A DNA stretch of 64,000 nucleotides from a virus (IMGVR_UViG_2778260992_000001), one strand, 5' to 3'; positions 4,121 to 63,375 are shown, counted from the stretch's first letter. Notes: generated from the sequence alone by a model not told the origin. Program-made: numbers and translations.

Positions 4121-4204
4121 TTGTTTATTTTAATAATTATTACACGCACGCGTGTGCGCACGCGCGAGGAAAAAATCGGCGCGGCGCTTGATTCAGGAGT
4201 TTAT

Positions 4205-4795
4205 ATGACGTCGAAGACACCAGCCCGGTCGCAAGCAAAAACTCGCAAAAAAGACAAAAACAAAAATTCTCCCCGCACCAATCCCACAACGCCTGTCGTA
4301 GAGTTCAATCCCCAGCTTAAAACCGTGAAAATCTTCAGTGATGGCTCTTGCCTTAAAAATCCGGGTGGCCCGGGCGGTTACGGTATAGTTCTCCAGTATC
4401 GTGGTGAGGAACGCGAGTTCTCAGATGGTTTTCATAGCACCACCAATAACCGCATGGAGATGATGGGGGCACTTATCGGGCTGGAGCGTTTGAAATATCC
4501 ATGCAACGTTATTTTGCACTCTGATAGCCAGTATCTGAAAAACGGCATGACACAGTGGATGAAATGGTGGAAACGCAATGGATGGATGACTTCTGACAAA
4601 AAACCGGTAAAGAATGTTGATCTGTGGAAGCGTCTGGATGAGGCCGCAAGTCGACATAATGTTCGCTGGAAGTGGGTTAAAGGTCACGCCGGGCATCGTG
4701 AAAATGAAATATGTGATCGACTCGCGAAGATCGCAGCTTTTTCCGCAGCAGATATGCCTCACAAGAAAGATATTGGTTTTGTTTATAACAAGTAG
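4205..4795 (+). CDS. rnhA: ribonuclease HI with basic N-terminal extension
   Basis: translation matches RNase HI along its length ([51 protein letters not shown]); RBS caggag before ATG 4205. Confidence 0.8.
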
Positions 4796-4943
4796 TAAGT
4801 AAGTGTTTACCTATCATTTTAAATCATGTATCTTATCGGCGTCAGGATGACAATGTGTCGGTAAGACACAGTTCCAGGATGGAACGAGAAAGGCGGCTGG
4901 CAATCGCCAGCCGCAACTCTTTCTGACACTGGATGGAGTCCAC

Positions 4944-5690: not shown

Positions 5691-5708
5691 GAAAACAACT
5701 TGTTTTGA
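5691..5708. promoter_or_regulatory. palindromic operator-like site, class 1 (AAGAAAACAAnTTGTTTT)
   Basis: gaaaacaacttgttttg located ~25 bp upstream of ATG 5730. Confidence 0.5.
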
Positions 5709-14762: not shown

Positions 14763-15160
14763 GTAGCAACTAGCGTTATGGACGCTGGTTTACGTACTCA
14801 ATGATCGCTTTGATAATCGCGAACATCGGCGGCACGATTTTGAACAGTAAGTTAACCATAACAGGCCTCACTTAGTTTTATCGCGCCTAGCTGCAAATAC
14901 CTTTGGGCTTGCCTTTGCAGTTGCAATATCTGTAGTCGCCAGATACTTACGGCACGATTTCGAGTTAAGGTAAGGTTTTAGAGTCACCAAAAACCTGGAC
15001 TTAAATCTTCTTTGAGAACAACGATGTTTGGTAAATGGTCATTATTACCTAGCATGACGGCTCAACGTTTCTTGATGAATCCAGTACATTCGGTTAATCT
15101 TAGCTCAGTCGCCAGATACTTATGGCTCAGGAACAGAGGCGCAAACTCTGTTTCCTTTTA
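14763..15160. repeat. ORF-poor region with duplicated ~20-bp modules
   Basis: agtcgccagatactta at ~14934 and ~15105; ggcacgattt at ~14826 and ~14952. Confidence 0.35.
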
Positions 15161-15190: not shown

Positions 15191-15485
15191 AATGTCCGTT
15201 TTTAACCAAATGTACCCACAATACCGCAACATCAGTGTCTTGCGAATTAAGATAGGATTTATAGAGACTATGTGCAAGTGCATAACTTTGTGGATAACTC
15301 GTAAAGGAAAAAGTGGTTTCCGCGGACATTAGTTCAGACAAGGAGTCTGGGAAAGTCAATGGGAAGTAAAAATTTGTTAAAAATAACGTTTGTTGGAATT
15401 GTATATATTTATGCCTTTCAATAGTTAGCATCTTATTAACATCTTTTTTAAGAGATAGAGTTCAAAAATATATAGCTTCAACATA

Positions 15486-15505
15486 TACTGTATGCATATA
15501 CAGTA
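15486..15505. promoter_or_regulatory. LexA (SOS) box
   Basis: tactgtatgcatatacagta fits CTGT-N8-ACAG, ~17 bp upstream of the UmuD'-like ATG. Confidence 0.7.
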
Positions 15506-15521
15506 TTAAGAGGCGAGTATT

Positions 15522-15911
15522 ATGGGCTTCCCTTCTCCTGCGGCGGATTATGCTGAGAGCCGTATTTCTCTTGATCAGCAGATAATTAGACATCCTTCAG
15601 CGACCTACTTCATGAGGGCAGCTGATAGTCATCATCGTGAGGGAATATTACAGGGTGCATTGCTGGTGGTCGATTCCTCACTTACCCCGGTTGATGGTTC
15701 TCTGCTTGTATGCGCTCTGGATGGGGAATATCGCGTAAAAAGATACCGGAAGTATCCACGTCAGCATCTGGAGGATTTAAGAACCGGTAAGAAGGAAGCA
15801 TTGCCAAAGGATGACGATGGATGCACGGGCAGCAATGCCGTGTTTGGTGTGATCACTCACATTATCAACGACGCAAGAAGTGGCGAGTTTGATGATTGTC
15901 CCGTGATGTAG
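15522..15911 (+). CDS. UmuD'-like (HumD-like) S24 peptidase-fold protein, pre-processed form
   Basis: begins MGFPSPAADY, i.e. at the position equivalent to the UmuD Cys-Gly cleavage site; contains conserved Ser (ADSHH) and a candidate Lys (RVKRYRK); no umuC downstream. Confidence 0.65.
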   Translation: MGFPSPAADYAESRISLDQQIIRHPSATYFMRAADSHHREGILQGALLVVDSSLTPVDGSLLVCALDGEYRVKRYRKYPRQHLEDLRTGKKEALPKDDDGCTGSNAVFGVITHIINDARSGEFDDCPVM

Positions 15912-15922
15912 GAGAACTGATT

Positions 15923-15948
15923 AGGCGGTGCAATGCACCGCCTTTTTA
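15923..15948. terminator. bidirectional terminator between UmuD'-like gene and apbC
   Basis: aggcggtgcaatgcaccgcct followed by ttttt. Confidence 0.5.
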
Positions 15949-17049
15949 TCACACTGCGCGGAATGCGATTTCGCCAGGTATTACTTCACCTTGCCAATAC
16001 ATTTGGGCAGCAACGCGATCTGCGAGGTCACGATAAATAGCCGTAAATTCGCTATCTGGACGACTAATAACGGTTGGTGTTCCGTTATCCAGATCTTCAC
16101 GAAGAGAGATATGAAGTGGCATTTGGCCTAACAACTGCGTGTTGTATTTCTCGGCCAGTTTCTGTGCGCCACCGGTGCCAAAAATTGGCTCGTGATGACC
16201 GCAGTTACTGCAAATATGCACACTCATGTTTTCAACGATACCCAGTACCGGCACTTCGACTTTTTCGAACATCACAATGCCTTTCTTCGCATCGATCAGC
16301 GCGATGTCTTGCGGCGTAGTTACCACAACCGCACCAGTTACAGGAATGTTCTGCGCCAGCGTCAACTGAATATCACCAGTGCCCGGCGGCATATCGAGAA
16401 CGAGATAGTCCAGATCAGGCCACAGTGTTTCCTGCAACATCTGCATCAGCGCCTTGCTGGCCATCGGTCCACGCCACACCATTGCATTGTCGTCGGTGAC
16501 CAGATAACCAATAGAGTTGGTTGCCAGGCCATGAGACATGATAGGTGCCATGTGAGTACCGTCAGGTGAGGTTGGACGTTGGTTTTCCGAGCCCAGCATG
16601 GTTGGAATTGATGGACCATAGATATCGGCATCCAAAATACCAACTTTCGCACCTTCAGCAGCCAACGCCAGTGCCAGGTTTACCGCCGTGGAGGATTTAC
16701 CCACGCCGCCCTTGCCTGAGCTGACGGCGATAATGTTCTTCACGCCATTAATGCCTGGTTGGTTTTTGACGCGCTTAAGCGTGGCAATGTTGTACGACAG
16801 CTTCCAGTCAATAGCCTTTGCGCCAGTGATACGGAGCAGATCACCACTACATTGCTCTTTCAGGTCTTCAAAAGGCTTATTCCACACGAAAGGCATGATT
16901 AGTTCGACATGCAGTGTGTCATCCATCAACGCAACATGGTGTAACGCTTTAAGCGTAGTCAGGTTGTGTTTCAGGGTTGGGTGCTGAAAATTAGCCAGCG
17001 TACCGGCTACCATTGCTCTCAGGGCATCCGGCGATTTGGACTCGCTCAT
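15949..17049 (-). CDS. apbC: iron-sulfur cluster carrier ATPase ApbC/Mrp
   Basis: 366-aa translation with Mrp/NBP35 P-loop SSGKGGVGKS and CxxC (CSNCGHH); recognised as enterobacterial Mrp from recall. Confidence 0.9.
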   Translation of the reverse strand: MSESKSPDALRAMVAGTLANFQHPTLKHNLTTLKALHHVALMDDTLHVELIMPFVWNKPFEDLKEQCSGDLLRITGAKAIDWKLSYNIATLKRVKNQPGINGVKNIIAVSSGKGGVGKSSTAVNLALALAAEGAKVGILDADIYGPSIPTMLGSENQRPTSPDGTHMAPIMSHGLATNSIGYLVTDDNAMVWRGPMASKALMQMLQETLWPDLDYLVLDMPPGTGDIQLTLAQNIPVTGAVVVTTPQDIALIDAKKGIVMFEKVEVPVLGIVENMSVHICSNCGHHEPIFGTGGAQKLAEKYNTQLLGQMPLHISLREDLDNGTPTVISRPDSEFTAIYRDLADRVAAQMYWQGEVIPGEIAFRAV

Positions 17050-17206
17050 CCCGTCTCCTTTATTTTAATTTGCGCAATTGTCGCCTTGTAGTGTACTCCA
17101 GCTACGACATTTAATCATTTATGAGAAATGCTGTTATCACATGGCAGACATAAGGCCATTTTGTTACTATCAAGCCCCTTTTCACTACAAAGAAGTAATG
17201 CCTACT

Positions 17207-19240
17207 ATGACCCAAGTCGCGAAGAAAATTCTGGTGACGTGCGCGCTGCCGTACGCTAACGGCTCAATCCACCTCGGCCATATGCTGGAGCACATCCAGG
17301 CTGATGTCTGGGTTCGTTACCAGCGAATGCGCGGCCACGAGGTTAATTTCATCTGTGCCGACGATGCCCACGGTACGCCGATCATGCTGAAAGCACAGCA
17401 GCTTGGTATCACACCGGAACAGATGATTGGCGAAATGAGTCAGGAACACCAGACTGATTTTGCAGGCTTTAACATCAGCTATGACAACTATCACTCGACG
17501 CACAGCGAAGAGAACCGTCAGTTGTCCGAGCTTATCTATACTCGCCTGAAAGAGAACGGTTTTATTAAAAACCGCACCATCTCTCAGCTGTACGATCCGG
17601 AAAAAGGCATGTTCCTGCCGGACCGTTTTGTGAAAGGCACCTGCCCGAAATGTAAAGCACCGGATCAATACGGCGATAACTGTGAAGTCTGCGGCGCTAC
17701 TTACAGCCCGACTGAACTGATCGAGCCGAAATCGGTAGTTTCTGGTGCTACGCCGGTAATGCGTGATTCCGAACACTTCTTCTTTGATCTGCCTTCTTTC
17801 AGCGAAATGTTGCAGGCATGGACCCGCAGCGGTGCGTTGCAGGAGCAGGTGGCAAACAAAATGCAGGAGTGGTTTGAATCTGGCCTGCAACAGTGGGATA
17901 TCTCCCGCGATGCGCCGTACTTCGGTTTTGAAATTCCGAACGCACCGGGCAAATATTTCTACGTCTGGCTGGACGCGCCGATTGGCTACATGGGTTCCTT
18001 CAAGAATCTGTGCGACAAACGCGGCGACACTACCAGCTTCGACGAATACTGGAAGAAAGACTCCACCGCCGAGCTGTACCACTTCATCGGTAAAGATATC
18101 GTTTACTTCCACAGCCTGTTCTGGCCTGCCATGCTGGAAGGCAGCAATTTCCGCAAGCCGACCAACCTGTTTGTTCATGGCTATGTGACGGTGAACGGTG
18201 CGAAGATGTCCAAGTCTCGCGGCACCTTTATTAAAGCCAGCACCTGGCTGAATCATTTTGACGCTGACAGCCTGCGTTACTACTACACTGCGAAACTCTC
18301 TTCGCGCATTGATGATATCGATCTCAACCTGGAGGATTTCGTTCAGCGCGTGAATGCCGATATCGTGAACAAAGTGGTTAACCTGGCCTCCCGTAATGCA
18401 GGCTTTATCAACAAGCGTTTTGACGGCGTGCTGGCAAGCGAACTGGCTGACCCGCAACTGTACAAAACCTTTACTGATGCTGCTGAAGTGATTGGTGAAG
18501 CATGGGAAAGCCGCGAATTTGGTAAAGCGATTCGTGAAATCATGGCGCTGGCTGATCTGGCTAACCGCTATGTCGATGAACAGGCTCCGTGGGTGGTGGC
18601 GAAGCAGGAAGGGCGCGATGCCGATCTGCAGGCGATTTGCTCTATGGGCATTAACCTGTTCCGCGTGCTGATGACGTACCTGAAACCGGTACTGCCGAAA
18701 CTGACTGAACGTGCAGAAGCATTCCTGAATACAGAACTGACCTGGGATGGTATCCAGCAACCGCTGCTGGGCCATAAAGTGAATCCGTTCAAGGCACTGT
18801 ATAACCGCATCGACATGAAGCAGGTTGAAGCACTGGTGGAAGCATCCAAAGAGGAAGTAAAAGCCGCTGCCGCGCCAGTAACTGGCCCACTGGCAGATGA
18901 TCCGATTCAGGAAACCATCACCTTTGACGACTTCGCCAAAGTTGACCTGCGCGTGGCTCTGATTGAAAACGCGGAGTTTGTCGAAGGTTCTGACAAACTG
19001 CTTCGCCTGACGCTGGATCTCGGTGGCGAAAAACGTAATGTCTTCTCCGGCATTCGTTCCGCTTATCCAGATCCACAGGCACTGATTGGTCGTCACACCA
19101 TTATGGTGGCCAACCTGGCTCCGCGTAAAATGCGCTTCGGTATCTCCGAAGGCATGGTGATGGCTGCTGGCCCCGGCGGGAAAGATATCTTCCTGTTAAG
19201 CCCGGATGCTGGTGCTAAACCAGGCCACCAGGTTAAGTAA
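17207..19240 (+). CDS. metG: methionyl-tRNA synthetase
   Basis: translation from [29 protein letters not shown] (HIGH) through KMSKS and C-terminal tRNA-binding domain; appears near-identical to E. coli MetG as recalled; divergent from apbC as in the host chromosome. Confidence 0.95.
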
Positions 19241-19323
19241 TTAAGCAACCATTCTTCACAATGCCCGGCAATACGCTGGGCATTTTCATTTAGACACAAT
19301 CCCTTCTGATTTACACATACCCT

Positions 19324-19338
19324 AAAACAATTTGTTTT
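19324..19338. promoter_or_regulatory. palindromic operator-like site, class 1
   Basis: aaaacaatttgtttt. Confidence 0.5.
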
Positions 19339-19371
19339 CTGCCTTTTGTTGATTGAGATAATAAACCACAT

Positions 19372-19390
19372 AAGAAAACAACTTGTTTTG
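19372..19390. promoter_or_regulatory. palindromic operator-like site, class 1
   Basis: aagaaaacaacttgttttg, 12 bp upstream of ATG 19402. Confidence 0.5.
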
Positions 19391-19401
19391 GAGTGGTTTA
19401 A

Positions 19402-19701
19402 ATGTTGAACATTACCCAAGCCTACCAGGTGGCATTGATCAGCTCATCTCATACATCAGAGGAAGATGCTCGCCGATTCATGATCGCAAGCAATGAGCTG
19501 GATTGGGTTTCACAAATTGAGTACGGTTGCATTGTCCACGCCGGGTTACAGGATGATGTCTGGAAAGACAACTTGCGTCGATATGGTATATCCGAGGGCG
19601 CGATTTCGAACATTCAGAAGGTACTTGATGTAGGCTTCGACTCTGTACATTTCGATTGTGGCGCACCGGTCGTTGAAGGGCTTGAGTGCTGGCAATGGTA
19701 A
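19402..19701 (+). CDS. hypothetical protein
   Basis: 99-aa ORF following class-1 palindromes. Confidence 0.45.
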   Translation: MLNITQAYQVALISSSHTSEEDARRFMIASNELDWVSQIEYGCIVHAGLQDDVWKDNLRRYGISEGAISNIQKVLDVGFDSVHFDCGAPVVEGLECWQW

Positions 19702-19737
19702 TCCGGCAATCGCTTCATACTAGATAACGGAGAATTT

Positions 19738-19923
19738 ATGCTTAAAGAAGACTCATATCTACTAAAGGCGCTTGAAATGCGTGGCGTTGAACCTACAGTG
19801 AAAAACGCCCACGATATCTACCTTCAGTTTTCACCGGAGCTGAAACGGCTCATAAATCAATACGGGGTTAATGACTCAAGTGTTAAAGCGATGATAGATG
19901 ATGAATTAGACCATCTCATCTAA
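19738..19923 (+). CDS. hypothetical small protein
   Basis: 61-aa ORF with RBS acggaga. Confidence 0.35.
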   Translation: MLKEDSYLLKALEMRGVEPTVKNAHDIYLQFSPELKRLINQYGVNDSSVKAMIDDELDHLI

Positions 19924-24178: not shown

Positions 24179-24302
24179 AAATGACTTTTAATAACCGAAG
24201 GTTAGTTTGAAACCTGGCTATCAACTTCCATAACCTTTCTTGTGTATTCAGCCTGTATTAACTTCTTTTATGCCTTATCTACACTGCGATAATTACACCA
24301 AC

Positions 24303-24320
24303 AAGAAAACAACATGTTTA
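24303..24320. promoter_or_regulatory. palindromic operator-like site, class 1
   Basis: aagaaaacaacatgttta with conserved upstream flank gataattacaccaac. Confidence 0.5.
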
Positions 24321-24332
24321 CGCAGTTAGGAT

Positions 24333-24620
24333 ATGCTCATGACTGATTTCACCATTACCCCTAAAGCACAAAATGTATTTCTTGAATCATGGCTGGACTT
24401 GCCGGAAACAGAACAGCAAGAAATGGATCATGTGGATTATGACGAGCAGGTAAGCACGCGATTCTTCCACTTTGAGGGATGCGTTTACGACATTGTCGAC
24501 TTCATGCGAGATGACCGCTTCCCTGAATGGCACGCAAGCTATCCACTAAACGCCTTTGCCATGCTGATGATCCGTGTGGATGATTCAGGGGATACCATCG
24601 ACATCGGTCTGCTCCACTAA
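24333..24620 (+). CDS. hypothetical protein
   Basis: 95-aa ORF, RBS aggat. Confidence 0.45.
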   Translation: MLMTDFTITPKAQNVFLESWLDLPETEQQEMDHVDYDEQVSTRFFHFEGCVYDIVDFMRDDRFPEWHASYPLNAFAMLMIRVDDSGDTIDIGLLH

Positions 24621-24625
24621 AGGCT

Positions 24626-27360: not shown

Positions 27361-27669
27361 TTATTGAACAGAATCTACAGCCTTACGATTGGTGTCAAAT
27401 AGCGCATCAACGAACTGTGCCGATGACTCGCTAGATTCGCAATCCAACATTGCCCGTTCTTCATTTGCCACTTTCTTACACAGTTCTACATTCTCACCTA
27501 TCGCTTTTCCTGCTTTTACGGCTGCCGAAAATTGATACATGCAAACTGATACATTCTGAGACGTTGAGCACACGTCATTCATCAGCGACTGAATGACAGG
27601 CTTATAGTCCATTGCATTTGCCGCAACTGAGCAAAGTAAAAATAATGGTGGTAACAATATCGATTTCAT
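27361..27669 (-). CDS. hypothetical secreted Cys-containing protein
   Basis: N-terminal signal-peptide-like MKSILLPPLFLLCSVAANA; 102 aa with 5 further Cys. Confidence 0.5.
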   Translation of the reverse strand: MKSILLPPLFLLCSVAANAMDYKPVIQSLMNDVCSTSQNVSVCMYQFSAAVKAGKAIGENVELCKKVANEERAMLDCESSESSAQFVDALFDTNRKAVDSVQ

Positions 27670-27672
27670 AAC

Positions 27673-28197
27673 TCAAAAAGGCAAAATTCGTTCAACCCAA
27701 TCGAACAAAACAACTATTTTTCTACCGTTCTCGACACGTAGTGTAACCTGACAAGCATCTGCGCCTGCTGACACCCCCTCAATTTCACGGCCATCCGCCA
27801 TGTACACCCTTATAGATTTGTTTGCTTTGTAGGCTTGGTTGCAAATTGCAAAAAAATCGCGGCGTGATGGCCGATTATCGACATAATCAGGGTGAACTGT
27901 TAGTCGACCTTTGAAATCGTGAGCGATACTGTCAACCACACCTGATTCAATTGTACTAATGCGTTCAAGTGGGAGCCTTATACGATTTTCTTTGTCAAAA
28001 GGGGCTGGGCAAAGGTCAACTTTGTTACGAGATGGCATGAGGCCATAAACGTACATGCAAAACGCCTGGCCATCTTCGAGAGTGACCCTTACAGGAATTT
28101 GTTCTCTGCGCCAGAACATCAGTAGTTTTTCAACGTTAGTGTAATCTCGCGGCCAGAGTTCAGCTTGGATACCGTAGGTAATATCTTTGGTTGTCAT
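27673..28197 (-). CDS. hypothetical protein
   Basis: start placed at internal Met (MTTKDITYG) so as not to overlap upstream lipoprotein gene; 174 aa. Confidence 0.4.
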   Translation of the reverse strand: MTTKDITYGIQAELWPRDYTNVEKLLMFWRREQIPVRVTLEDGQAFCMYVYGLMPSRNKVDLCPAPFDKENRIRLPLERISTIESGVVDSIAHDFKGRLTVHPDYVDNRPSRRDFFAICNQAYKANKSIRVYMADGREIEGVSAGADACQVTLRVENGRKIVVLFDWVERILPF

Positions 28198-28201
28198 GTC
28201 A

Positions 28202-28624
28202 TCACAGAGTTGTTGGCAGAATGTCGATGTCACCAGAATTGCTGGTGAACACCCTGAACGCTTTTGTGTCTCCATTCTTCAGAGTCGTTTCTCGCTCTTG
28301 ACGAGCGGGGTTTAGAGCACATAAACCTGCACCTTCAAGAGATGCACCCACAATTAATTCTCCGGCATTTAAATGAAAAGTCGCTTTTTCGCCTGTAGCC
28401 AGTTTTGCGACAGTTTCGCCATTGATGAAAATGGAAGCATCACATCCAGCTCCTACAAAACCTGTGTCTCTCATTACCACCAACGTAGCTGGCGCTGCGC
28501 TTTGATACTTGAACACTTTGGCCTGCGGTGCTGGTTTGGCGTCATGGATTGATATTGGACGTGATTGGCACGCGGTAAGCATCAACACTGGTAACGTTAG
28601 TAGAGGGAGAAGCGAGTATTTCAT
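28202..28624 (-). CDS. putative lipoprotein
   Basis: MKYSLLPLLTLPVLMLTAC: signal peptide with lipobox L-T-A-C. Confidence 0.55.
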   Translation of the reverse strand: MKYSLLPLLTLPVLMLTACQSRPISIHDAKPAPQAKVFKYQSAAPATLVVMRDTGFVGAGCDASIFINGETVAKLATGEKATFHLNAGELIVGASLEGAGLCALNPARQERETTLKNGDTKAFRVFTSNSGDIDILPTTL

Positions 28625-28692
28625 GTTAGTTTTAGAACAGAAAGTGAACAGTATGGGAGACTTCATCTTTGTCTCCCTAATTGATAGCGTGA

Positions 28693-28971
28693 TTATTTTA
28701 ATCTGCTTAATAGCGTTTCAAGATCTTCCTTTGTCATATTAGAGTTCTCATAGATACGCATGATTTTCTCACGAGTCTTAGCGGAAGCCCCGACAGAAGA
28801 TATAACCTTGTCAAAGTCGGCCATTGTCAATTGTTCCAGAATGGTATTTATGACTTCAGCCTTAGACATTTTGATATTTTTTTCTTTTAGTTTCACTTGA
28901 AACTTTCCAAGTTTGTCATTGGCCTTATCAGACAATGCTACCTGACAGTAAGTTGTTTTCTTTTCACTCAT
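28693..28971 (-). CDS. hypothetical protein
   Basis: 92-aa ORF directly downstream of helicase gene on minus strand. Confidence 0.45.
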   Translation of the reverse strand: MSEKKTTYCQVALSDKANDKLGKFQVKLKEKNIKMSKAEVINTILEQLTMADFDKVISSVGASAKTREKIMRIYENSNMTKEDLETLLSRLK

Positions 28972-61869: not shown

Positions 61870-62020
61870 GCCTCAACCCGATGGGGTGCTTTTCTGCGAT
61901 GCGGCTACACCGCTATACATCAGCCGTGATGATCTCATGACCGAAGAGACTGAAAGAGAGGTGCTTTTTCACAATATGATTGGGGAGCGATTGTGTGGAT
62001 GGGGCAGAAAAGTGCCATAA
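61790..62020 (+). CDS. o-spanin (Rz1-like lipoprotein), overlapping Rz in +1 frame
   Basis: signal peptide with lipobox ISGC, Pro-rich mature start; begins inside Rz and extends beyond it. Confidence 0.55.
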   Translation: MKHLMSYGARMLLLFIMSCTISGCVIKPQPDGVLFCDAATPLYISRDDLMTEETEREVLFHNMIGERLCGWGRKVP

Positions 62021-62194
62021 CAAAAGTGGCGTTTTCTAACATAAAATTTGCATATTATTAGAGCACAAGGTAGATTTGATGCATGGATGTCAAGTAAATC
62101 ATACCTTGTTTTAATAAATCGACGCATACTCGTAGCCTCTAAACCGACAAGGTCGCCGCTATGACATAAAGTTATTACCGGCTAAGGTGGAAAC

Positions 62195-62593
62195 ATGCAT
62201 ACTGCACTTAACGCATCTCGTTCTATTCAGACGATAAGAGACTGTACCAAGATGATCGCATCGGTTCCGTTGCGGTATTGGGATGACTCGCTCCAAATTC
62301 GTGAAATGAACAAACCAGGTATGCTTAAGGATCAGCGTTTCATCGTTAACCTTAAAAGTGACGTTGAAGAAGGCAAGTTTACCATCAAATTGTTTGCAGA
62401 AATGATGGTGCTCAACAATCGGTTACGTTTCCTTGTTAAGCCAGAAAAACAGTTTCCCGATGTTGTGCGTTGTGAACCGGATGCTTTCTATGAGATTGAA
62501 AGCAAAATAGCTAAATTTATCAAAGATAAATACCGCGTAGATGTTAAAATAGCGAAACTGGATTCACCTACGGATATGCGGCTAGCGAACTAA
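62195..62593 (+). CDS. hypothetical protein
   Basis: 132-aa ORF, RBS aaggtgga. Confidence 0.45.
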   Translation: MHTALNASRSIQTIRDCTKMIASVPLRYWDDSLQIREMNKPGMLKDQRFIVNLKSDVEEGKFTIKLFAEMMVLNNRLRFLVKPEKQFPDVVRCEPDAFYEIESKIAKFIKDKYRVDVKIAKLDSPTDMRLAN

Positions 62594-63370
62594 ATGTCAC
62601 CATCATTCATAGCAGAGTATTCAAAAGTACTGTCTGATTTCCCTGAATGTGAAACAAGAGAAAAAATCAGAGTTGGCTACATGGTTAACTCTGATTTTTC
62701 TGTTTTACGACTCACAGAATGGTCCTTGACCGGTTCTAATTATGATTACTGTTTGACAGTGTCATTTGTAGGCGACCCTGATGCAGATTGGCTTCAAGAA
62801 CATGCAATGGATCTTGACGAGCAGGGGTATTCAGAAGCAGAGATAGTTCATAGTGTTCGTGAGTTAGTTGGTGATGAGCAAGAAGATGATGACGGCATTC
62901 AGATCGCCAGGTTCGTCTACAAACGATTCCAGTTTCGCTCACAAAAAGGCTCTCATCTTGGGGTCCAGATTAAAGGGGCATTTGTAACCCCTTCAAAGGA
63001 ACAAAAGGGACTTGCTAGAAGAGTTTACAATTTCCTTCTCAATTGGCATGACCATGTGGTATGTGATGACCATCAGACGGTTTACGGTGCCAGAATTTGG
63101 GCGGTCGGTATGCTTCTGGTCGGGCGTGTCCAAATCTATGACAATTTAAACAAAGAATTTATAGATGTCCTTGTTGAAGGTGGTATTGGGCAGAATGGCG
63201 TCAAACCGTGGGACGCGCTGCTATTGAGCAGCGAGGCCCAGTTACGTCACTGGAACCCTATGGCCGTCAGCATAGACCCATCTAGTCAGATTCTCGCCAT
63301 CATCTCCAAAGAAGACCGTCACATTGAAGTGGGCGTTACAACTTTTGACGCCAGGTCTACCAACCATTAA
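62594..63370 (+). CDS. hypothetical protein
   Basis: 258-aa ORF; terminator downstream. Confidence 0.5.
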   Translation: MSPSFIAEYSKVLSDFPECETREKIRVGYMVNSDFSVLRLTEWSLTGSNYDYCLTVSFVGDPDADWLQEHAMDLDEQGYSEAEIVHSVRELVGDEQEDDDGIQIARFVYKRFQFRSQKGSHLGVQIKGAFVTPSKEQKGLARRVYNFLLNWHDHVVCDDHQTVYGARIWAVGMLLVGRVQIYDNLNKEFIDVLVEGGIGQNGVKPWDALLLSSEAQLRHWNPMAVSIDPSSQILAIISKEDRHIEVGVTTFDARSTNH

Positions 63371-63375
63371 TTCCT

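Follow-up and report, generated by a model that had tools for sequence, protein, structure and literature searches.

We have found that a 64,000-nucleotide stretch of viral DNA, IMGVR_UViG_2778260992_000001 (hereafter the window, by which we mean that whole stretch), belongs to an SSU5/pHCM2-type phage-plasmid of the Cyrano (pLF82) lineage, and we confirm that a divergent pair of bacterial genes within it, apbC (mrp) and metG, is genuine cargo captured by that element. The pair encodes an iron-sulfur (Fe-S) cluster carrier and a complete methionyl-tRNA synthetase (MetRS), and on the plasmid both genes are under strong purifying selection. The first-pass annotation of this DNA had described the pair as host-like and as unusual cargo, and each description stands in part. 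The genes are intact and of chromosomal type, but apbC and the spacer do not come from E. coli and metG is a recombining mosaic; likewise a full synthetase does sit on a mobile element, but the pair is near-fixed in the whole E. coli, Shigella and E. albertii lineage of that element and is already annotated in public records, including that of Cyrano.

The gene apbC occupies positions 15949-17049 on the minus strand and is an intact open reading frame (ORF) of 366 residues encoding a P-loop ATPase of the Fe-S cluster carrier type. Its product scores 758 bits against the NCBIfam equivalog NF008669 (cut-off 348), has a Pfam domain of the NUBPL-type ParA kind, and carries a deviant Walker A motif (GKGGVGKS) at residue 112 and the cluster-binding CxxC motif, here CSNC, at residue 280; the nearest solved structure, 8ZKC, is an iron-sulfur cluster carrier protein. 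We note that the homologue in Cyrano, CYRAN_99 (L002 8550-9650, equivalent to 15949-17049 of the window), is named 'Septum site-determining protein MinD' in the Cyrano GenBank record and in the published moron table, and is actually ApbC/Mrp. The MinD identity was rejected, MinD models giving 57 bits against a cut-off of 212.9 where the ApbC model gives 758.

The gene metG lies at 17207-19240 on the plus strand and encodes a full-length, dimeric-type MetRS of 677 residues with a canonical sequence. The protein scores 1019.9 bits against NCBIfam equivalog NF001100 (cut-off 587) over residues 4-677, comprises the Pfam domains tRNA-synt_1g, Anticodon_3 (416-540) and tRNA_bind (581-674), and matches TIGR00399 (metG_C_term) at its C-terminus with 162.9 bits; a 720-residue ORF with a TTG start at 17078 was considered as the true metG start and rejected as an over-extension of the 677-residue frame. 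The catalytic core aligns end to end with the E. coli MetRS crystal structures 1F4L, 1QQT and 1P7P, and the HLGH and KMSKS motifs and the four-cysteine zinc knuckle (CPKC...CEVC) are intact at the positions they have in K-12, as are seven further positions that we compared, all identical. Only 7 of 677 residues differ from the K-12 enzyme, all conservatively (99% amino acid identity), and S151A, inside the zinc knuckle, is the only change near the signature motifs. From this identity to a characterised enzyme we infer that the plasmid MetRS would methionylate tRNA-Met. Among plasmid-type copies drawn from IMG/VR and GenBank, metG is intact in all 23 that are full-length, with zero pseudogenes, and apbC is intact in 30 of 30.

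A divergent pair with its own intergenic region, laid out as on the host chromosome, is what the first-pass annotation had reported, and the K-12 mrp(apbC)-metG locus (b2113-b2114) does share the gene order, the divergent orientation and the domain architecture of the plasmid pair, as well as the core 47 bp upstream of metG. The two loci differ in that the spacer is 157 bp on the plasmid and 131 bp in K-12 and mostly non-homologous, the plasmid apbC is three codons shorter at its N-terminus, and the flanking terminators are unrelated. Unlike the K-12 locus, moreover, the plasmid pair sits on an element present at about 5.5 copies per cell, a figure determined for Cyrano (PMC9928086).

The nature of that element is clear from its gene content and its relatives. 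Terminase, portal, capsid, tape measure, tail fibre and ParB genes are found in the window, and RepB on the closest complete relative, NZ_CP195946.1. Positions 15400-19900 are 100% identical to p1 of E. coli C6, a circular plasmid of 109,926 bp, to which the window as a whole is 96-99.5% identical; positions 24185-24625, 27363-28718 and 61905-63375 have no megablast match to C6 p1 and represent further variable regions. Cyrano (that is, pLF82 of the adherent-invasive E. coli (AIEC) strain LF82; OV696614 / NC_011917), CMS-2020a, PhiR41_1 and pECOH89 are elements of the same type with the same locus, in which humD, apbC, metG and a DUF5983 gene follow in the order seen here at 96-97.6% nucleotide identity. 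Cyrano, whose terminase and portal are 99.4% identical to those of the window, differs only allelically (metG 96.9% and apbC 98.4% identical), and its record annotates the MetRS as such. SSU5, Salmonella Typhi pHCM2, Yersinia pestis pMT1 and the SSU5-like elements of Klebsiella and Enterobacter share the backbone, with terminase and portal at 79-83% identity, and a nucleotide-metabolism block of nrdAB, thyA and dfrA51, the last encoding a trimethoprim-resistant dihydrofolate reductase (PMC12217456), is common to these relatives and present in NZ_CP195946.1. Outside the portion equivalent to the window, NZ_CP195946.1 also carries dnaE, a DnaB-like helicase gene, primase, ligase, recA, grxA and four tRNA genes (tRNA-Ser, -Thr, -Tyr and -Asn). 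Cyrano forms siphovirus virions (electron microscopy and quantitative PCR) and is induced 39-fold by ciprofloxacin (PMC9928086); the present element, known here from its sequence, may by analogy with this relative produce virions as well. At about 4150-4798 of the window (L001 8751-9399) there is an rnhA (RNase HI) pseudogene, frameshifted and N-terminally truncated according to the Prokaryotic Genome Annotation Pipeline annotation of the closest relative. Host-like metabolic genes on the element are therefore not all kept intact in the way that apbC and metG are.

That the pair is captured cargo and not a prophage boundary, as the first-pass annotation had proposed, is borne out by its junctions, which recur in some 210 circular plasmids, by phage genes that are never chromosomal and by flanks that are not host DNA. 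Homology to enterobacterial chromosomes can be detected over 15953-19241, an interval that takes in the two coding sequences and the spacer and stops at the stop codon on each side. The match to K-12 (88.7% identity) is confined to this interval, and in comparisons with 81 chromosomal loci from other Enterobacterales the homology gives out no more than about ten bases from either stop codon, or already within the genes. The pair also has a GC content of 51.2%, against 46.2% across the rest of the window, a compositional comparison that the earlier reading had recommended. Of 5,426 complete E. coli genomes, 209 have both junctions, as do 180 plasmids in PLSDB. DNA of the terminase or portal occurs in 237 complete genomes at 245 places, all of them plasmid, and in none of the 5,426 chromosomes; integration of the element into the chromosome is accordingly rejected for complete genomes. 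Queried with the K-12 pair, each of the 5,426 genomes yields exactly one chromosomal apbC-metG, and a further 213 matches are plasmid records. The second, chromosomal metG for which the first-pass annotation advised a search is thus always there, so that carriers of the plasmid have extra copies of an essential gene rather than a relocated one.

Structural genes at 95% identity or more occur in 216 of the complete E. coli genomes (about 4% of 5,426) and in 186 PLSDB plasmids, so defining a lineage hosted by E. coli, Shigella and E. albertii, whose carriers include AIEC LF82, enterotoxigenic E. coli and Shigella sonnei. Other structural-gene matches, in Salmonella, Yersinia, Klebsiella, Enterobacter and Citrobacter, are at most 83% identical; we saw no sign of the pair in those inspected, and close matches to the plasmid MetRS are nearly all from Escherichia and Shigella. 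Within the Escherichia lineage the pair is near-universal, at about 97-99%, a range obtained by setting separate totals against each other (213 or 209 with the pair, 216 lineage members) and not record by record. The slot beside humD in which it lies is a hotspot for recombination or cargo. The one relative whose slot was inspected, Salmonella pCFSAN000614 (L084 4486-6144), lacks apbC-metG and carries host-derived ydfZ and ISKox3 in the slot, and in a rare E. coli variant, the a7 plasmid (L085 2422-6888), the pair is gone and a DUF4145 gene, IS3, a helix-turn-helix regulator gene and IS1 lie between humD and the genes on the DUF5983 side, while a type I restriction-modification system flanks humD on its left. 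In a few draft contigs (L086; L098 and L111, from IMGVR_UViG_2740892421_000017) the sequence crosses within metG from the left flank of the phage-plasmid to a right flank of chromosomal type, or the two types of copy stand next to each other; L104 and L113 (IMGVR_UViG_2671181056_000013) fall in the same group, and one mixed contig has a tandem of three copies, partial or complete. We read such contigs as probable assembly chimeras across a 95%-identical repeat rather than rare true recombinants.

We present evidence that the pair came from outside E. coli and that its two genes have since diverged in their relation to the chromosome. Plasmid apbC is 82% identical to that of K-12 in nucleotides and 93.8% in amino acids, with 1.5 synonymous (dS) and 0.036 nonsynonymous (dN) substitutions per site, and plasmid metG is 94.5% identical in nucleotides (dS 0.27, dN 0.0054). 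K-12 and Citrobacter are separated by a dS of about 1.2 and a dN of 0.022 in apbC and by a dS of about 0.73 and a dN of about 0.022-0.025 in metG, while for K-12 and Escherichia sp. E1V33 dS is 0.58 in apbC and 0.28 in metG. On this scale apbC is at least as distant from E. coli as Citrobacter or Salmonella, and the distance of metG from K-12 is that of another Escherichia species. At six of the seven residues where the plasmid MetRS departs from K-12 it has the Citrobacter/Salmonella state, S151A alone being plasmid-specific, and the spacer finds its best match in Citrobacter. Judged by sequence divergence, these comparisons show the donor to have been an enterobacterium other than E. coli. 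Even a metG allele reconstructed to be 'most plasmid-type' remains Escherichia-like (92.2%) and points to no donor.

Comparison among the plasmid copies shows that metG repeatedly recombines with the chromosomal gene, the result being a mosaic and hyper-diverse gene. Nucleotide diversity is 3.1-3.2% in metG and 1.4-1.5% in apbC, the reverse of the order on chromosomes, where apbC evolves faster than metG, and the Hudson-Kaplan minimum (Rm) requires at least 24-59 recombination events in metG and 5-9 in apbC. Strings of diagnostic sites reveal E. coli-type blocks within metG that are placed differently in different plasmids. For example, in a complete plasmid of 108,107 bp, nucleotides 390-850 of metG match a chromosomal allele at 99.1% identity and the nearest plasmid copy at only 95.4%, and outside this tract the plasmid copy is the closer of the two. 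Exchange can recur because metG has kept about 95% identity with the copy on the resident chromosome, whereas apbC would keep its original depth because it is too divergent to recombine. The phage-encoded RecA could contribute to this gene conversion.

Purifying selection is evident in both genes. Relative to chromosomal homologues dN/dS (omega) is about 0.02 for each (0.024 for apbC and 0.02 for metG against K-12), and comparisons between plasmid copies give 0.011-0.017 (apbC) and 0.007-0.019 (metG). The value for apbC is the cleaner evidence of selection acting on the plasmid, since this gene is too divergent to be rescued by conversion.

We propose, with moderate confidence, that capture of the pair by the Cyrano/pLF82 lineage was followed by selection on both genes and by conversion of metG, with metG serving as an auxiliary translation gene of the phage and apbC as a moron of the lysogen. 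An ancestor of the lineage took a chromosomal segment of 3.29 kb into the accessory slot beside humD, the segment being exactly the divergent apbC-metG pair and its control region, from an enterobacterium other than E. coli and, on the simplest reading, in a single capture; the pair has thereafter been inherited as a near-fixed part of the element. Resident chromosomal alleles then, on the same reading, converted metG repeatedly and left apbC unconverted and divergent. Like the tRNA genes of the element, metG may serve the phage in translation, a reading suggested to us by the four tRNA genes and the element's own nucleotide and replication machinery in its closest complete relative; the plasmid MetRS would then charge initiator and elongator tRNA-Met mainly outside quiet lysogeny, either in lytic growth after induction or, as a reserve copy, at times when charging becomes limiting. 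The apbC gene, for its part, would be expressed in the lysogen as a moron and add Fe-S carrier capacity. Consistent with this last step, the apbC homologue CYRAN_99 is expressed 9-fold above the prophage background in LF82 lysogens and is listed as a moron (PMC9928086 Table 1). As regards the features expected of a moron, terminator-like hairpins flank the pair, and in the data for this relative apbC stands at 9-fold and metG at about 1.6-fold, near the floor.

A number of observations weigh against this proposal. The metG gene of Cyrano, CYRAN_100, is near the detection floor in all five LF82 conditions, with log2(FPKM+5), where FPKM is fragments per kilobase per million mapped reads, of about 4 (4.2) in overnight lysogeny broth and 2.7-3.6 in Dulbecco's modified Eagle medium and in macrophages, the floor being 2.32 (PMC9928086 S1 Table). 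At most 15% of the 50-mers of Cyrano metG are common to E. coli chromosomal alleles, so ambiguous mapping does not account for the low RNA. Nor does a simple sigma-70 scan explain it, since the scan finds a consensus promoter in neither the plasmid nor the K-12 spacer. The enzyme, moreover, is essentially identical to that of the host, so that any benefit would have to be one of dosage or timing, and MetRS is a stable protein, so that it is not evident why the phage should need more of it in the lytic phase. Some of the low dN/dS of metG could have arrived with converted chromosomal tracts. On the evolutionary side, the estimate of near-fixation compares separate totals, as noted above. As to the donor, among the matches listed in a scan across species (80 species, with E. 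fergusonii, E. albertii and others not among them) none was nearer than E. coli or Citrobacter, and a protein search with ApbC found no chromosomal cluster closer than about 94.5%.

Several of the same observations are what one would expect if the pair were a neutral passenger, picked up once and hitchhiking ever since, with a metG that looks constrained only through the re-import of purified chromosomal sequence. The near-silence of metG in LF82 lysogens, the conversion tracts and high recombination in the gene, the lack of any phage-specific protein change other than S151A, and the loss of the pair to insertion sequence elements in the rare a7-type variant without obvious harm could all be accommodated in this way. 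We nevertheless consider it unlikely, if far from negligible, that the pair is carried for nothing. Re-import cannot speak for apbC, which at 82% identity is too divergent for conversion yet has the low omega given above and is intact in every copy; the lineage has kept the pair almost throughout though the slot turns over in relatives; not one of the 23 full copies of metG is a pseudogene; and packaging limits should penalise 3.3 kb of useless DNA.

It is possible, if rather doubtful, that metG is a regulated stand-by gene, silent in lysogeny and switched on at induction or upon collapse of Met-tRNA charging, in which case the carrier strains, about 4% of those with complete genomes, would be provided with a wild-type back-up. 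If this were true, alleles from outside E. coli would be continuously shuttled into and out of an essential chromosomal gene via gene conversion.

It is improbable that the value of metG to the element lies in its sequence rather than its product, as a homology bridge of 2 kb of near-identity through which RecA would drive integration or the transfer of alleles and adjacent host DNA between plasmid and chromosome. The pervasive recombination in metG, the recA gene of the closest relative and the draft contigs L086 and L098, with their junction of plasmid left flank and chromosomal right flank inside metG, would fit such a role. The contigs, however, come from draft assemblies, one having an implausible triple tandem, and are probably chimeras, and against the idea stand the 5,426 chromosomes, none with terminase or portal and each with exactly one apbC-metG. 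A bridge would also leave the conservation of apbC unexplained.

The synthetases MupA, MetRS2 and AgnB2 protect against antibiotics that target synthetases, and second synthetases borne on plasmids are classically resistance genes. By this precedent, and given that the same element carries dfrA51 (PMC12217456), the plasmid MetRS might confer immunity or resistance as an enzyme insensitive to an inhibitor or toxin. MupA and MupB, which are isoleucyl-tRNA synthetases, and MetRS2 are likewise second synthetases on mobile elements, but they are divergent paralogues with altered inhibitor pockets, whereas the plasmid MetRS is canonical and scores about 33 bits against MupA/MupB models whose cut-offs are 1900. 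Since it is 99% identical to the sensitive host enzyme, with catalytic motifs and the seven other compared positions as in K-12, since six of its seven differences are ordinary Citrobacter/Salmonella states, and since the gene is barely expressed in lysogens, we regard a resistance function as very improbable. We consider refuted the suggestion that the pair is an artefact (an assembly chimera, a prophage/chromosome boundary, or an essential gene relocated to the plasmid as an addiction mechanism), in whose favour there is only the strangeness, beforehand, of finding a housekeeping gene on a phage, as more than 200 independent complete circular plasmids have both junctions, the flanks have no chromosomal homology and all 5,426 chromosomes keep their own pair.

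We return to the proposal that metG is an auxiliary translation gene, for which phages and viruses with synthetases of their own offer a comparison. Jumbo phages and giant viruses also carry a complete synthetase beside tRNA genes (metG occurs in Microcystis phage MaAM05 and in uncultured phages of more than 600 kb), a combination usually read as translation support (huge-phage preprint 10.1101/572362). Among 50,697 phage records the sole other credible phage-borne MetRS genes are those of jumbo phages, which are distant (24-29% identity) and belong to very large lytic genomes and old viral lineages. Here, by contrast, a temperate plasmid-phage of 110 kb has a MetRS that is 99% identical to that of its host, that came with its chromosomal neighbour and control region, and whose gene still exchanges sequence with the host copy.

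Although these genes are annotated in hundreds of public records, we found no discussion of metG or apbC on such elements in the literature on phage-plasmids, on LF82 and Cyrano or on dfrA51, where an earlier mention is nonetheless possible. Four aspects appear to be new: that the pair is fixed throughout the lineage, that apbC and the spacer originated outside E. coli, that the chromosome continues to convert metG, and that apbC is expressed where metG is nearly silent.

A sizeable part of the species E. coli has several extra copies of an essential translation gene, and metG is a recurrent target of tolerance and persistence mutations (PMC11004401, PMC11634777); a wild-type plasmid metG could mask recessive chromosomal mutations of this kind or alter their evolution. 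The mosaic pattern shows, furthermore, that a mobile element can be both a reservoir of, and an exchange partner for, alleles of an essential core gene, which is of relevance to typing and phylogeny based on metG. We also note that this is a rare case of a temperate enterobacterial phage with a complete synthetase and one that is experimentally tractable, because Cyrano is inducible in LF82 and the PhiR41_1 record gives K-12 MG1655 as host.

The DNA between and around the two genes bears further features. The divergent control region, at 17050-17206, is a spacer of 157 bp common to both genes. Its left part of some 105 bp is Citrobacter-like (77-78% over about 130 bp), and its final 47 bp, conserved with Escherichia, comprise an extended -10-like element (TGnTACTAT) and the ribosome-binding site, so placing the mosaic breakpoint within the spacer near 17150-17160. 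No structured RNA or leader was recognised by Rfam models between 14000 and 21500, and no tRNA gene was found in the 64-kb window. A terminator-like, GC-rich hairpin followed by a T-run lies at 15923-15943, between the convergent humD and apbC; its sequence is kept in 23 phage-plasmid loci and absent from chromosomal loci. A second terminator-like hairpin with a T-run, on the plus strand at 19260-19284, begins 20 bp past the metG stop codon, and the terminator that K-12 has at the equivalent position is non-homologous. Neither flanking hairpin, sought as a clue to the donor, was present in any of the chromosomal loci.

On the left, the slot is bounded by humD (15522-15911, plus strand), a P1-type gene for a UmuD'-like S24 peptidase (NF051876, 219.8 bits) that is 85-86% identical in nucleotides to the humD genes of P1, D6, RCS47 and SJ46. 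Upstream of it, outside the captured segment, positions 15488-15503 on the plus strand are a perfect match to the LexA-box-like pattern CTGT-N8-ACAG. In Cyrano the expression of humD (CYRAN_98) rises from a log2 value of about 7 to about 12 in macrophages, about 30-fold, without read-through into metG (PMC9928086 S1 Table), and this rise, together with the LexA-like box, fits SOS control of humD, a translesion-synthesis gene. Farther to the left, an ORF-free stretch of 800 bp between the last early gene and humD contains two copies of a 20-nucleotide direct repeat, AGTCGCCAGATACTTAYGGC, at 14934-14953 and 15107-15126 (173 bp apart), and two terminator-like hairpins.

Lastly, to the right of metG the phage-plasmid backbone resumes with two element-specific palindromes, at 19324-19338 and 19375-19389, which shortly precede the annotated DUF5983 gene (19480-19701, plus strand). 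Such palindromes on both sides of the pair had been pointed out in the first-pass annotation and are real, but two of the positions then given, 6418 and 19372, were off by 3 bp (6421 and 19375). They belong to a 15-bp family, AAAACAANNTGTTTT, with 11 sites in the window against 0.23 matches expected by chance (20 matches when counted over both strands), namely at 5692, 6421, 19324, 19375, 22169, 22653, 23556, 24306, 24791, 33931 and 63477; four of these bracket the pair. Of the sites checked, most precede a plus-strand start codon by about 20-50 bp, and the family probably represents either the operator for a regulator that the element encodes or a common promoter element.

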